In this document: one piece after another, positions 24,980 to 31,078 of the stretch
Layout: every line of letters starts with the position of its first letter
Numbering within the stretch: position 1 is the first letter of the stretch
DNA from: Eledone cirrhosa
Taxonomy: Eukaryota
Direction of reading: 5' to 3'
Assembly: GCA_964016885.1 (NCBI GenBank)
Contig: OZ024754.1
Location: 2,976,001 to 3,040,000 of the forward strand
Length of the DNA: 64,000 nucleotides
Notes under the pieces: model-generated
What the model saw: only the letters and a program-made list of their open reading frames with translations
What the model was told of the DNA's origin: nothing
The model's database searches: none
Made by a program: the position numbers and the translations under genes

Positions 24980-24995
24980 TAGGGATAGATAGATA

Positions 24996-26722
24996 GTTAC
25001 TCCATAGGTTGACAGACAGATAGGTAGATAGACAGATAGTCCATAGGTAGATAGATAGTCCATATATAGATAGATAGTCCATATATAGATAGATAATCCA
25101 TAGGTAGATAGATAGTCCATATATAGATAGATAGTCCATATATAGATAGATAGTCTATAGATAGATAGATAGTCCATAGGTAGATAGATAGTCCATATAT
25201 AGATAGATAGTCTATAGATAGATAGATAGTCCATAGGTAGATAGATAGTCCATATATAGATAGATAGTCCATATATAGATAGATAATCCATAGGTAGATA
25301 GATAGTCCATATATAGATAGATAGTCCATATATAGATAGATAGTCTATAGATAGATAGATAGTCCATAGGTAGATAGATAGTCCATATATAGATAGATAG
25401 TCTATAGATAGATAGATAGTCCATAGGTAGATAGATAGTCCATATATAGATAGATAGTCCATATATAGATAGATAATCCATAGGTAGATAGATAGTCCAT
25501 AGATAGATAGATAGTCCATAGGTAGATAGATAGTCCATATATAGATAGATAGTCCATATATAGATAGATAATCCATAGGTAGATAGATAGTCCATAGGTA
25601 GATAGATAGTCCATAGGTAGATAGATAGTCTATAGGTAGATAGATAGTCCATATATAGATAGATAGTCTATAGGTAGATAGATAATCCATATATAGATAG
25701 ATAATCCATATATAGATAGATAATCCATATATAGATAGATAATCCATATATAGATAGATAGTCTATAGGTAGATAGATAATCCATAGATAGATAGATAGT
25801 CTATAGGTAGATAGATAGTCCATAGGTAGATAGATAGTCCATAGGTAGATAGATAATCCATATATAGATAGATAATCCATAGGTAGATAGATAATCCATA
25901 GATAGATAGATAATCTATATATAGATAGATAATCCATAGGTAGATAGATAGATAATCCATAGGTAGATAGATAGATAATCCATAGGTAGATAGATAATCC
26001 ATAGGTAGATAGATAATCCATAGATAGATAGATAGTCCATATATAGATAGATAGTCCATAGGTAGATAGATAATCCATATATAGATAGATAATCCATAGG
26101 TAGATAGATAGATAGTCTATAGGTAGATAGATAATCCATATATAGATAGATAATCCATAGGTAGATAGATAATCCATAGATAGATAGATAATCTATATAT
26201 AGATAGATAGTCTATAGGTAGATAGATAATCCATAGGTAGATAGATAATCCATAGATAGATAGATAATCTATATATAGATAGATAATCCATAGGTAGATA
26301 GATAATCCATAGATAGATAGATAATCTATATATAGATAGATAGTCTATAGGTAGATAGATAATCCATAGGTAGATAGATAATCCATAGATAGATAGATAA
26401 TCTATATATAGATAGATAATCCATAGGTAGATAGATAGATAGTCTATAGGTAGATAGATAATCCATATATAGATAGATAGTCCATAGGTAGATAGATAAT
26501 CCATAGGTAGATAGATAATCCATAGATAGATAGATAATCCATAGGTAGATAGATAATCCATAGGTAGATAGATAATCCATAGGTAGATAGATAATCCATA
26601 GATAGATAGATAGTCCATAGGTAGATAGATAGTCTATAGGTAGATAGATAATCCATAGGTAGATAGATAATCCATAGGTAGATACCCCATAGACTGATAG
26701 ATAGGTAGATAGATACTCCATA
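24996..26722. repeat. 1.7-kb (GATA)-derived minisatellite, 19/23-bp units such as agatagatagtccataggt
   Basis: Direct periodicity; explains the MDYLSIYGL ORFs. Confidence 0.97.
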
Positions 26723-26930: not shown

Positions 26931-27061
26931 GTATGTATGTATGTCTGTATGTATGGGGATTTCGTATTTCTAAAGAAATACGGTATGTTTATAAATAAAC
27001 ATTTAGAAAGCCGTAGCTATGCAAAAAACACGGGCGGTGTCCAGCAGAAGCAAGGGGGACA

Positions 27062-27105
27062 ATCGTCGATGCATTTCGAACTGAACTGATCCTCATCAGG
27101 ACAAT
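27062..27105 (-). ncRNA. Minimal type I hammerhead ribozyme motif in a pLTR-like insert (about 26955-27195)
   Basis: Minus strand: AUUGUC-CUGAUGA-GGA(ucaguucag)UUC-GAA-A(UGCA)U-C^GACGAU; 6-bp stem I, intact core, palindromic loop III, AUC cleavage triplet. Confidence 0.85.
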
Positions 27106-27351
27106 CCTTCCCACTCTTGCAACTGCTGGTCCTGAAAACAGGCGAGAATATATAGTTTTATCGTCTGTGTAAATGAGGTGATTAATCTCATTTGCACATG
27201 TATGTGTGTGTGTATGTACATATGTGTGTGTATGTATGTATATGTGTGTATATGTATGTGTGTGTGTGTGTGTAGTAAAATATCGTTGGATGTGAACAAG
27301 GAAAAGAGTGCTCAATAAGGTGTGGAAGCTGATATATATATATATATATAA

Positions 27352-27466
27352 ACATAGGTTACGCATGTTTGTGGAATACTCAGCCACACGTTAATTTCAC
27401 GAGCACGCTGTTCCATTGATCGGATCAACTGGGGCACTCGTCGTCGTCACCGACGGAGTACATTCC

Positions 27467-27467
<1 letters not shown>
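27352..27467 (+). mobile_element. SINE 3' fragment between (TA)n tracts
   Basis: gtggaatactcagccac...gatcggatcaactgg...cgtcgtcgtcaccgacggag; the gtggctgagcattccac motif recurs inverted at 36387. Confidence 0.55.
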
Positions 27468-27534
<67 letters not shown>

Positions 27535-27659
27535 CTATTTTCTTCGCTAAATTTATTATGTAGCTAGAATTGATTAGATTGCTATTTGACCTCCGTTTAT
27601 GTTTTTGTTTGTTTTTAAATAAGTAATCTATTTCACGTGGACAGCTGTTATTAGTGCAA

Positions 27660-27697
<38 letters not shown>

Positions 27698-27850
27698 TGT
27701 TCTAGTCGGGGGTTATCATCATCTCTCTATCTCTCTCTGTCAACACACACACGCACAAATATATAGATATGTGTATATATATATAACCAAAGATTAATAT
27801 GGTTCATTGATTACTCAATGAATATAGTTTTACAATAGATTAAAAGCACT

Positions 27851-28078
27851 CTAACCCTTTAATGTTCAAGCCGGCCAAAACCGGCCAGAATTCTCTACCT
27901 TTCTCTGTTGAAACTGGCTGTTACTGGTCTCTCAAACTAATGTTAAGGTATTGTTCTCAAAATAAATACTTTCAAAATCTCATAGATTCGATATTATGTG
28001 AGATAATTTTGTGAGATAAAGCATTTACGATGAAAATATAATAGTATATATAGAGTAATGTGAATGCTAAAGGGCTAA
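27851..28078 (+). mobile_element. piggyBac-type MITE family A, same subfamily as 8202-8430
   Basis: Shares diagnostic taatgttcaa and gtgaatgct variants with 8202. Confidence 0.85.
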
Positions 28079-28145
28079 AGCACTCTGCCAATACTGGAAT
28101 TGATCCATCAAGACAGTTGAGGTATGTCACACATCAATTCATGTA

Positions 28146-28207
28146 TTTTATCTGACGAGGACGTACTGAAAAAGCAGCACAGTACCTTCGAAATATATAT
28201 AATAAAA
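28146..28207 (+). ncRNA. Minimal type I hammerhead ribozyme motif, sense to the host gene
   Basis: UUUUAU-CUGACGA-GGAcGUACUG(aaaaagcagca)CAGUACcUUC-GAA-AU(AUAU)AU-A^AUAAAA; predicted cleavage after 28201. Confidence 0.85.
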
Positions 28208-28240
28208 CATATATTTTCATTATGTGAACGTCTTCATTAG

Positions 28241-28274
<34 letters not shown>

Positions 28275-28398
28275 GGAAAAAATGAAACGAAATTTCATTT
28301 CTCACGTACATATATATATGTGTGCATGTATGTATGTATATATATATACATACATACTACTGTACGTCTGTATACATATATGTATGTACGTATACATA

Positions 28399-28430
<32 letters not shown>

Positions 28431-28433
<3 letters not shown>

Positions 28434-28731
28434 CGAAGGAAGTGTGGTAAAGAACCAGATGGACCATAACGCACTAGCGTACTCAATACTGAGGTAGAGT
28501 ACTCAATACGTAGTAGAGTGGGTAATAGGAAAATGTTTAACCCCGACGGCAGATCTCAACCCGTTTCGACGGCTATTTCTGGAGTCCAGAAATAGCCGTC
28601 GAAACGGCTTGAGCTCTGCCGTCGGGGTTAAACATTTTCCTATATATATATAACGAAGGAAGTGTGGTAAGGAACTAGGTGGACCATAACGCACTAGAGC
28701 TCAGCCGTCGGGGTCCTGACTCTTTTCCTAT
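28431..28731 (-). mobile_element. Two adjacent (TA)n-inserted family H2 elements; the first has a 59-bp fold-back palindrome (28525-28643)
   Basis: Arms differ at 2 of 59 positions with a 1-nt loop; they contain GAAACGGCT-tgagctc-(A/T)GCCGTC-gggg, the 3' half of a hammerhead; homologous to 30874-31078. Confidence 0.8.
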
Positions 28732-28828
28732 ATATATATATATAAGAACAGATTAAAGTTTAAGCAAAGAATCGCTGCTTTCACCCTTAACGGGATCTTC
28801 TGAAAATAAAAAAAATCGGATTTATTAT

Positions 28829-28879
<51 letters not shown>

Positions 28880-29232
28880 GCATATACATACTGTATATAC
28901 TAGTGAATAAGTCGCACCGTTTTCTACGAAAATATATAAACATCCAGCATGCGACCTATATACGGTGTATGTATGTATGTATGTGTGTGTGTGTGTGTAT
29001 ATATATATGTGTTTGTGTGTATAATGCATTATTAATATATAACATAATATTATACTATTGGTATATATTATATTACATATATGCAGCAGTATATACAGTT
29101 GTATATTATATCATATAAACTAGTCGTGTCAGGTTGTGTTAAATCCCTTTATCAAGCTAACTCTTCTGTGCCATCTCTTTCTCGTATATATATATGTGTG
29201 TGTTCGTATATATATATGTGTTTGTGTGTTCG

Positions 29233-29265
<33 letters not shown>

Positions 29266-29440
29266 TCGTATATATATATATATGTGTGTGTGTTCATATA
29301 CATAGGTGTGTGTGTGTTCGTATATATATATATGTGTGTGTGTGTTCGTTTATATATGTGGGTGTGTGTGTTCATATACATATATGTGTGTGTTCGTATA
29401 TATATGTGTGTGTGTTTGTTTATATGTGTGTGTGTGTGTG

Positions 29441-29489
<49 letters not shown>

Positions 29490-29490
29490 T

Positions 29491-29521
<31 letters not shown>

Positions 29522-30116
29522 CCTTTCCTCTTTCGCTCCTTACCTCTCTTTCTATTTCCTCTGTCTTTCCTTTCCACTCTCATTTCATCTCTCTCTCTCA
29601 TTTCCACACACTCTCTTTCATAATCCGTGTTCACTCCCCCCCCCCCCCCTATCATATTTCCACAGTTACTGACTATATCTCACTATCGTTGACTTTCGTT
29701 GTCCCAATCGAAGTTCAATATTACCATTCGAGTTGAAGCAATCTCCTCTCTTTTCTTTGGTTGGCCCTTGTATTTAGATTATCAGTCCTTTATTTTTAAA
29801 AACGTTTACATGACCCGCTGTGGGGAGTGTTTGCGGGCACCGCCCCCATGACCCTCTCGGGAATAGTTTACGAAGAAGAAAGGAGAAATTCAATTAAAAA
29901 AGAAACTGACATTTTCATTAGTAAATTACTATAAACTACTATTTGAAACATCATTTAACAAAATTTCTCTAAAAAGATTATACTTGTTTCTACTTTAGGC
30001 ACAAGGCCAGCGATTACCCAGTGCATTACTGGTACTTTATTTAGTACTGGTACTATATAAAAAGATTATACTGAAAGCTTTTAATATGTATGTATATATA
30101 TAATGTGTGTGTTCAT

Positions 30117-30251
30117 ATAATTAAGGGACGAAGCTTATCGAATAGAATTAACACAACTTCGTAATCTAATTAAGTCTGTATTATTAAAATTCGAACCTAA
30201 CTAATTAGTGTACACATACGCTAATCAGGGAGGAAGACAACTTCGTGTGGG

Positions 30252-30252
<1 letters not shown>
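30117..30252. mobile_element. (TA)n-inserted repeat, unclassified
   Basis: aagcttatcgaatagaa...taatctaattaagtctgtattattaaaat...gtgtacac shared with 60561-60694. Confidence 0.65.
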
Positions 30253-30283
<31 letters not shown>

Positions 30284-30355
30284 TAGGGTGCTCCCCCCAA
30301 AAAATATATACAAACTTCAACAGCATTCTAATCAAGGTCATTTATGGGGGACACC

Positions 30356-30416
<61 letters not shown>

Positions 30417-30749
30417 TGTTGCATGTATTTTAAATTGAGTTATGCTGTCTTCAGTGTTTGGCAATTTCTAGACAACTCTATCATGGAAACAATTGTTAGA
30501 CTGTAAATAAATCTCCTTGTTTGTACTGTTGACCATGTTATTTTTCACTTTTATATATATATATATATATTCGATATGCCTCATGAAATAATACAGCCAA
30601 TTTTCCACGCAATACATTTAGTTAGCACCCCGAAGAGCTTAATTAGGAATATACTCACTTATTTCCTAATGTTTGTTGAGTGAGTTGGAATTTGGCCGGA
30701 GTATCGCTAAAAACCTTTCTCCGATAATGTATTTATTTATTATATATTA

Positions 30750-30803
<54 letters not shown>

Positions 30804-30873
30804 GTTGTTGACGGACCCAACATATTTATCAATGCCAGTACCGGTTGTATCTCAGCGCACTCAATATATATAT

Positions 30874-31078
30874 ATAGGAACAAGTAGGACCCCGACGGCT
30901 GAGCTCAAGCCGTTTCAACGGCTAATTCTGGACAATTGAGTCCAGAATTAGCCGTCGAAACGGCTTGAGCTCAGCCGTCGGGGTCCTACTTGTTCCTATT
31001 ACCCACTCTACTACCCTAAGTATTGAGTACTTTCGTGCGTTATGGTCCATCTGGTTCCTTACCACATTTCCTTCGTTA
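30874..31078 (+). mobile_element. Family H2 element with a 60-bp fold-back palindrome (30874-30999) in (TA)n
   Basis: Arms differ at 1 of 60 positions, 6-nt loop aattga; sense arm reads TGA-g...c-GAAACGGCTtgagctcAGCCGTC-ggggtc. Confidence 0.8.

Follow-up and report, generated by a model that had tools for sequence, protein, structure and literature searches.

A hammerhead-ribozyme cluster in Eledone cirrhosa read as a pile-up of truncated Hydra-type Penelope-like element ends in TA repeats

The window analysed here is a 64-kb stretch of the Eledone cirrhosa genome (G000:C14:2976001-3040000), approximately 34% GC and rich in simple repeats, and the subject of this report is a cluster of hammerhead-ribozyme sequences that occupies 4.2 kb of it (26955-31078). 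The original prediction, made from this DNA alone, described the cluster as a set of unrelated short ribozyme elements packed into (TA)n tracts of one intron. The genome searched for relatives comprises 3.0 Gb, and all but one of the focal inserts belong to high-copy families, of which F1, F2, F4, and F5 were named in the present analysis, while H2 is a label kept from the original prediction; numbers preceded by L (e.g., L093) denote genomic loci of family copies retrieved for comparison. H2 is represented by 4267 candidates and 53,660 exact 23-mers, F1 by 2954 candidates and 1,027 exact 28-mer matches, F2 by 1401 candidates, F4 by 2713 candidates, and F5 by 17,576 exact 34-mer matches. The microsatellite reported to bound the inserts is directly visible in their flanks.

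The F2 insertion in the window comprises two arms. The left arm (27786-27850, minus strand) is an inverted piece of an optional 3' tail, which matches 34 loci at 97-100% and is found downstream of F2 copies, whereas the right arm (28079-28245, plus strand) comprises the last ~165 bp of a Hydra-type Penelope-like element (PLE) and runs with the family's short end into (TA)15. The family has two 3' ends ~90 nt apart; in the window insertion, the left side holds the tail in inverted orientation and the right side the end that lacks it. The best genomic copies are 95-97% identical, and several of the 30 best have 0.5-1.5 kb of upstream sequence in common. In L093, which bears an inverted copy on its 5' side, the hammerhead and (TA)n lie 1.2 kb beyond reverse transcriptase (RT) and GIY-YIG frames; L096 and L091 agree in carrying RT and GIY-YIG frames upstream of the F2 end, and the RT piece found there has 31,692 candidates in the genome. 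L158, which represents an F2-related subfamily, contains a 750-aa open frame with one linker Cys changed; Pfam did not recognise this Hydra-type frame.

Three H2 copies lie in the cluster, each with only the 3' part of a hammerhead, in agreement with the partial hammerheads noted earlier at these places. Copy 1 (28433-28643) consists of truncated 3' ends placed head to head, a tailed arm on the minus strand (28433-28583) and a short arm on the plus strand (28585-28643), and its tail hairpin is duplicated at 28481-28519 (20-bp duplication). In copy 3 (30874-31078), the short arm is on the minus strand (30874-30933) and the tailed arm, with a bulged tail hairpin at 31005-31028, is on the plus strand (30940-31078). 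The arms are complementary over 59 bp (97%) in copy 1 and over 60 bp (98%) in copy 3. Copy 2 (28653-28731) is a short remnant, comprising the tail end on the minus strand and the last ~35 nt of the short arm on the plus strand; the same layout is repeated in L199, L200, L216, L229, and L231.

Unpaired H2 arms led to longer upstream sequence, and eight of 30 such copies run in sense into an RT/endonuclease (EN) frame. The parent possesses a whole hammerhead with a UUGANAA core (U3-A8), a 4-bp stem III plus an A-U pair, and a long stem II. When 48 distinct copies were parsed with the seven core letters left free, U3 was found in 44, U4 in 48, G5 in 46, A6 in 47, A8 in 48, and A9 in 46, position 7 being variable (A 33, G 8, U 5, C 2); G10.1-C11.1 was retained in 45 copies and the GUC triplet in 40. 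Among Schistosoma PLEs, U3-A8 covariation has already been described (PMC4209133). The possibility of a CUGANGA half lying no more than 30 nt from the H2 half was considered and rejected; the 34 matches were mixed and mostly junction chance, and the true UUGANAA core lies 57 nt upstream.

The junctions were characterized at the first 60 H2 loci of C1, taken in genome order and picked by an exact 23-mer, which yielded 43 adjacent head-to-head pairs and 25 single arms. In 42 of the 43 pairs, one arm ending at +49 was combined with one ending at +124 (binomial p 5e-12), so that each of these pairs holds one short arm and one arm with the 75-nt tail. The same polarity was observed in long insertions whose ends lie 3-5 kb apart (L196/L197, L210/L211, L234/L235). 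Most paired arms (73/86) stop between -29 and +5 of the stem II anchor, the core starting at -57, and the whole hammerhead is kept in only 18 of 111 arms. The centres differ in 25 of 27 parsable junctions, indicating that every insertion forms its own fold-back de novo. The sequence of the left arm corresponds to the parent's 3' end in reverse complement and not to the 5' strand of the parent's stem II.

F5 is present at 28742-28830 as an inverted short-end arm (28742-28807, minus strand) joined to the last bases of the tail. The only hammerhead-like fold of the family, found under a relaxed core, has a CAGAAGA core and stems I, II (closed by U-U), and III of 5, 3, and 3 bp, respectively, and is located ~25 nt before the short end, where other families carry theirs; its activity is doubtful because of the U4A change. 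Among 30 genome-order loci, three continue upstream into an EN frame (L286, L305, L306) and two carry an inverted RT arm (L304, L308). Fold-back junctions in L298 and L300 (at 1501) turn CAGAAGA into a canonical CUGAAGA core, and T replaces A in the core in four of the first 100 matches. At L297/L298 (G000:C1:4182250-4182450), a short H2 arm is joined to F5 arms without TA, which could reflect either loss of the sequence between two adjacent insertions or the copying of two families' RNAs into a single insertion; no cross-family head-to-head join passed the filter in L195-L354.

The Hydra clade is defined by a C-terminal GIY-YIG domain without CCHH, the DKT, RWK, CxxC, and CxH motifs, a CxCx5C linker, hammerheads, and (TA)n insertion (PMC8557442), and includes Hydra-1_Obim from Octopus bimaculoides, a (TA)n-targeting element with a hammerhead (supplement of PMC8557442). 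RT followed by C-terminal GIY-YIG, in sense with and upstream of the hammerhead end, is present for F2 (L093, L096) and for H2 (the eight copies mentioned above); for F5, the linkage consists of the EN frames and inverted RT arms already listed. DKT, RW(K/R), YRDD, CxCx5C, CxxC, and CxH were found in natural copies of the three families or close subfamilies and match the Hydra-1_Obim protein. SDKT and LRWR occur together in L308 (F5), L166 (H2, an inverted 5' piece), and L159 (F2-related), SDKT also in L158, the CxCx5C linker in L093, L096, L166, L176, and L306, and CxxC and CxH in L096, L166, and L306. CCHH is absent, with one Cys between the linker and YIG in the frames examined by eye, as compared with the Neptune-like frame of L030. 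The hammerhead near the 3' end is canonical in F2, U3-A8 covariant in H2, and a U4A variant closed by U-U in F5, and the endonuclease regions of the three families are 30-48% identical in pairwise comparison. Judged from these sequences, the F2, H2, and F5 pieces in the window are 5'-truncated 3' ends of putative Hydra-type PLEs encoding RT together with a GIY-YIG endonuclease at the C terminus. The earlier attribution of such hammerheads to Penelope-type elements is thereby borne out by the frames upstream, whereas the view that the inserts are non-autonomous fails for these three of the five families, for which copies attached to RT and GIY-YIG were found. Likewise, the reported lack of an open reading frame (ORF) applies to the window copies but not to the F2, H2, and F5 families with their coding parents. 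In a separate case, L157 (G000:C28:42778000-42786000), a Hydra-type ORF is interrupted by a near-complete non-LTR element (RT and restriction-like endonuclease), and a run of Ile codons joins the two in frame to give a 935-aa open frame.

F1 differs from these families in being non-coding. Its unit, established from the 2954 candidates, a unit map, and two ends, is ~339 nt long (336 nt and a linker of 3 nt) and carries a canonical type I hammerhead; the window copy (26956-27200, minus strand) is truncated, covering unit positions ~29-295 and stopping at the short end. Two ends were mapped, at ~293-295 and at 334-336; each is represented once in 15 distinct two-armed loci, the long end occurs twice in L040, and further inverted pieces terminate at other positions. 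The unit is directly preceded, head to tail, by its own 3' part in 16 or more of 30 genome-order loci, mostly as one full unit after a partial one; L270, L283, and L274 extend backwards as far as, or close to, the previous unit's hammerhead region. Upstream of F1 in these 30 loci, neither a common non-unit sequence nor a match to Hydra proteins was detected. Covariation was assessed in 44 distinct copies of 49 parsed out of 60, and compensatory pairs were observed at stem II pair 2 (A-U 20, G-C 16), stem II pair 3 (A-U 28, G-C 15), and stem I pair 5 (U-A 25, C-G 14), most of them deriving from two subfamilies and therefore representing few events. These features fit a retrozyme-like RNA for which a Penelope-type enzyme would use a multimer or circle as template, and mobilisation of retrozymes by Penelope-like elements has been proposed (PMC7229834; 10.64898/2026.07.22.740005). 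Contigs from three sequencing runs of one sample showed no differences over the F1 hammerhead at this place and no empty allele distinguishable from repeats.

A young Neptune-like Penelope family was considered as the F1 mobiliser and set aside, its 3' end showing no likeness to F1 except for one 18-nt match in one of 30 loci. This very young family (L030:303-1343, minus strand, and L356-L385) has 36,890 candidates, dozens of them 100% identical across 140 endonuclease aa, and carries a minimal CUGAAGA hammerhead behind an AC-rich 3' untranslated region (UTR). A U6 small nuclear RNA copy with an altered 5' end (Rfam, 83 bits; L052:1176-1281, minus strand), probably a retrocopy, lies ~180 bp from an F1 insertion. 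The fifth family, F4, contributes its last ~160 bp (30575-30736, plus strand), truncated past the family hammerhead so that the copy contains no ribozyme; in most of 30 loci, a hammerhead with a CUGAUGA core and a long stem II is present upstream, and the 5' ends are variable.

Two complete hammerhead folds had been predicted in the cluster, and both were confirmed. The F1 hammerhead (27061-27106, minus strand) has a CUGAUGA core, loop III UGCA, and a 7-bp stem I, with the cut predicted between 27068 and 27067; in addition to the compensatory pairs, the surrounding fold has a z score of -3.81. The F2 hammerhead (28146-28207, plus strand) has a CUGACGA core, loop III UAUAUA, and a 6-bp stem I, with the cut predicted after 28201, and its core is intact in 29 of the 30 best-scoring copies. 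In both, loop III is palindromic. A type I descriptor matched exactly these two places in 64 kb, compared with a mean of 0.01 matches in 100 block-wise dinucleotide shuffles, none of which reached two. At the gathering score, Rfam gave no match in the window and missed both complete hammerheads; at E up to 5, a 20-bit Hammerhead_1 match was obtained on F4 copy L023, the others being hairpin-driven microRNA models and one U6. Of the degenerate cores proposed earlier, that at 28779-28802 is retained as the family-wide CAGAAGA variant of F5, with stem I reduced to 3 bp in the window copy, whereas two others did not hold up. The one at 29120-29160 is single-copy (one match, itself, as for the whole stretch 29095-29185), and its fold is no better than shuffles (z -0.67, -0.07); the one at 30630-30690 is not conserved in relatives and lies downstream of the true F4 hammerhead, which is absent from the window copy. 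Most pieces in the window are without a complete ribozyme.

Other features accompany the cluster. The original prediction saw no terminal inverted repeats, but a miniature inverted-repeat transposable element (MITE) with short terminal inverted repeats occupies 27855-28074 and has copies in other loci. It is very abundant, is unrelated to the hammerhead families, and sits at a CTAA site exactly in the F2 head-to-head junction; CTAA flanks both sides in the window, and TTAA was found elsewhere at four of five left ends and five of 11 right ends. We read it as a probable piggyBac-like MITE, the alternative being an 8-bp duplication. Further interspersed repeats lie between the TA tracts at 30425-30551, 27356-27461, 29962-30042, and 30285-30338; the first of these was also encountered in L029 and L165, arranged in head-to-head arms with an optional extension, and is possibly a further Penelope-type end. 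A 1.7-kb array of ~89 copies of a 19-bp GATA-rich unit (24985-26684) ends 270 bp to the left of the cluster. With regard to the proposed single-intron setting, a crude splice-site scan and a Pfam scan of two candidate frames gave no convincing exon.

The association with TA repeats was assessed against a background of forty evenly placed 10-kb stretches (400 kb), which contained 60 pieces of the five families, i.e., 1.5 per 10 kb, overdispersed with a variance of 3.4. A (TA)3 was present within 12 nt of an end in 47 of the 60 pieces versus 18% of random placements, and at both ends in 22 versus 3%, an enrichment that supports the earlier claim of a link to (TA)n. Long ends run into TA in 134 of 139 cases for H2, 33 of 38 for F5, and 24 of 25 for F2. 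Targeting of (TA)n by hammerhead-bearing Hydra elements, including those of octopus, has been published (PMC8557442). Reinsertion into TA tracts beside earlier inserts was also correctly foreseen, nesting being seen in L010, L089, and the window. A search for empty sites with pre-existing TA tracts returned 14 of 378 candidate cases, mostly self matches or nested inserts.

Taken together, we conclude, with a probability of roughly 85%, that truncated 3' ends from three families of protein-coding Hydra-type PLEs, together with a single non-coding hammerhead unit, have piled up in this cluster, and that Penelope-type RT-endonucleases likely inserted them into TA repeats. This reading rests directly on family membership, upstream ORFs, two fixed 3' ends per family with one of each per insertion, variable central junctions, and TA flanks. 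A mechanism may be borrowed by analogy from Poseidon of Anolis (PAc), whose protein cuts and extends both strands at AT-rich DNA in vitro from two internal RNA start sites spaced by the tail, hammerhead cleavage being unneeded for insertion in vitro (PMC11167929). Carried over to Hydra, it would explain why insertions have a single tail, head-to-head arms, and TA on their flanks. The protein would cut both strands of a (TA)n tract, and each cut end would prime copying from one of two fixed starts on the element RNA, each start being set by a bulged hairpin 4-7 nt downstream. Copying would mostly end early (in H2, the hammerhead's long stem II is the likely stopping point), and head-to-head joining of both cDNAs would yield a fold-back with half-ribozymes. 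The flanking TA tracts would then become targets again, so that stubs stack because they share a target. F1 would likely take the same route from multimeric or circular RNA by means of some Penelope-type enzyme. The stubs in the window are most likely inert.

Three alternatives were weighed against this reading. The original proposal of a set of unrelated, non-autonomous ribozyme retroelements, which would seek out TA tracts and assemble islands there, is improbable as an account of the cluster, although the description of an independent ribozyme system is true for F1, with its fixed unit, arms across the unit junction, and no ORF, and possibly for F4. The strong TA association and the overdispersion of pieces speak for it as well. 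For F2, H2, and F5, however, it is already largely refuted by the coding parents, and the whole hammerhead is lost from most H2 arms. Nor do the islands stand out, another family lying within 300 bp in 5 of 60 H2, 2 of 27 F5, and 8 of 28 F1 cases, compared with 9%, 13%, and 17% for controls centred on TA tracts, which include tracts beside elements (p 0.67, 0.88, and 0.09, respectively). Since clustering is no greater than around TA tracts, no special ribozyme island is needed. The H2 palindrome could instead be a mobile unit of its own, a fold-back MITE or a hairpin RNA copied whole, as its tens of thousands of near-identical short copies (the 23-mer count given above), their narrow size range, and the retention of both ends in the shortest copies might suggest. 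We regard this as very unlikely, given the differing centres, the polarity that also holds where kilobases separate the arms, and a left arm that corresponds to the parent's 3' end instead of its 5' stem II strand.

Least probable of all, in our opinion, is selection on local density, e.g., through self-cleaving or double-stranded RNA elements regulating a host transcript. The focal 4.2 kb does contain eight pieces against one in the other 60 kb of the window, and the complete hammerheads lie on opposite strands, so that one is sense to any transcript. Yet no host exon was found in the splice-site and Pfam scans, four of the 40 background stretches also hold 4-5 pieces in 4.2 kb (best, five), and TA tracts number 5 per kb in the focal region versus 1.9 per kb in the background. 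Moreover, both hammerheads have a weak palindromic stem III, a type reported to be inactive as monomers and to need dimers (PMC4209133); a coral retrozyme monomer cleaved well (PMC7229834).

Several points weigh against the pile-up of truncated PLE ends. F1 has neither an ORF nor the paired hairpin described below (0/30), and F4 showed no linked Hydra frame within 1.5 kb in 30 loci and no parent ORF. For F2, H2, and F5 themselves, no fully intact ORF was found, and clade membership is drawn from motifs and by-eye comparison. Selecting the H2 sample by a 23-mer means that at each locus one arm necessarily extends to -1, the analyst chose where to put the hairpin anchors, and the Poseidon mechanism, established in vitro, belongs to another clade. 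Finally, the focal count of eight exceeds the best background count of five, though the families were picked from the focal spot.

The ends of these families share one further motif, consisting of RCTC with two or more additional pairs, a loop, a bulge of 2 nt, and GAGY. Such a hairpin starts 4-7 nt after eight of nine tested ends (H2, F2, an F2 relative, and F5), compared with 0.2% of random points, and is present in 34 of 37 tailed H2 arms and seven of 12 tailed F5 copies. Only those few copies that extend beyond the long end (L250, L166, L116, L162, L320) show the second hairpin. By eye, the same hairpin follows the hammerhead of coral Hydra-2_Amil and occurs twice at the start of sea cucumber Hydra-1_Ajap; the words hairpin, stem-loop, and palindrom do not occur in the main text of PMC8557442. 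From its position, each hairpin likely marks where reverse transcription starts. We cautiously favour the idea that two conserved bulged hairpins (RCUC, stem-loop, 2-nt bulge, GAGY), 4-7 nt past each RT start, are bound by a protein dimer that writes one arm per start into the two ends of a cut TA tract. The hairpin would help a telomerase-related RT to position its template and would have been conserved across coral, sea cucumber, and E. cirrhosa. If true, this would explain why almost every insertion has exactly one tail and why fold-back half-ribozymes number in the tens of thousands.

In terms of abundance, the locus is ordinary, with ~1.5 such pieces per 10 kb sampled. F4 and H2 copies also recur every 70-180 kb at equal scores in G000:C20:4.08-4.99 Mb and C27:15.7-16.2 Mb, which suggests that large segments were duplicated in tandem there. 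For annotation, it matters that the fold-backs resemble MITEs, microRNA precursors (the sub-threshold Rfam matches), or novel ribozymes, yet are none of these. The families constitute a large natural data set on PLE integration, with a single tail, a stall inside the hammerhead, and a hairpin beside each start, to which F1 adds a retrozyme-like RNA whose insertions show a Penelope signature.

We consider these elements to be of a known kind, represented by new families. A literature search, which did not extend to subscription journals, Repbase, or Dfam, returned no paper on the families or on the paired hairpin; six short family motifs gave no match in the supplement text of PMC8557442, where line breaks can hide a match, so F2, H2, and F5 may be uncatalogued there. 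They resemble the Hydra elements described in that paper in RT-GIY-YIG architecture, motifs, 3' hammerhead, (TA)n insertion, an inverted 5'-truncated copy, and a tail at one end, and differ in tails of ~75-90 nt instead of 30-40, 3' UTRs of ~0.9-1.2 kb, and the U3-A8 (H2) and U4A (F5) cores (PMC8557442). With the PLE hammerheads of PMC4209133, they share type I folds in pseudo-long terminal repeats, mostly single truncated copies, opposite-strand pairs, and a palindromic helix III. The U3-A8 core of H2 is shared with Schistosoma Cercyon, whereas its parental 4-bp stem III plus A-U pair, its long stem II, and the loss of the 5' half from most copies set it apart from the hammerheads described there (PMC4209133). 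Two RT starts spaced by the tail, cutting and extension of both strands, AT-rich targets, and a predicted dimer are likenesses to PAc, which is a member of another clade, starts in an AC-rich stem loop, and has no conserved twin bulged hairpin in its published description as far as this was available (PMC11167929). F1 is similar to metazoan non-LTR retrozymes in its ~339-nt non-coding unit, type I hammerhead, and head-to-tail junctions; in contrast to their long arrays, it is mostly dispersed in copies of 1-1.5 units that have inverted arms and two fixed ends separated by 42 nt (PMC7229834; 10.64898/2026.07.22.740005).

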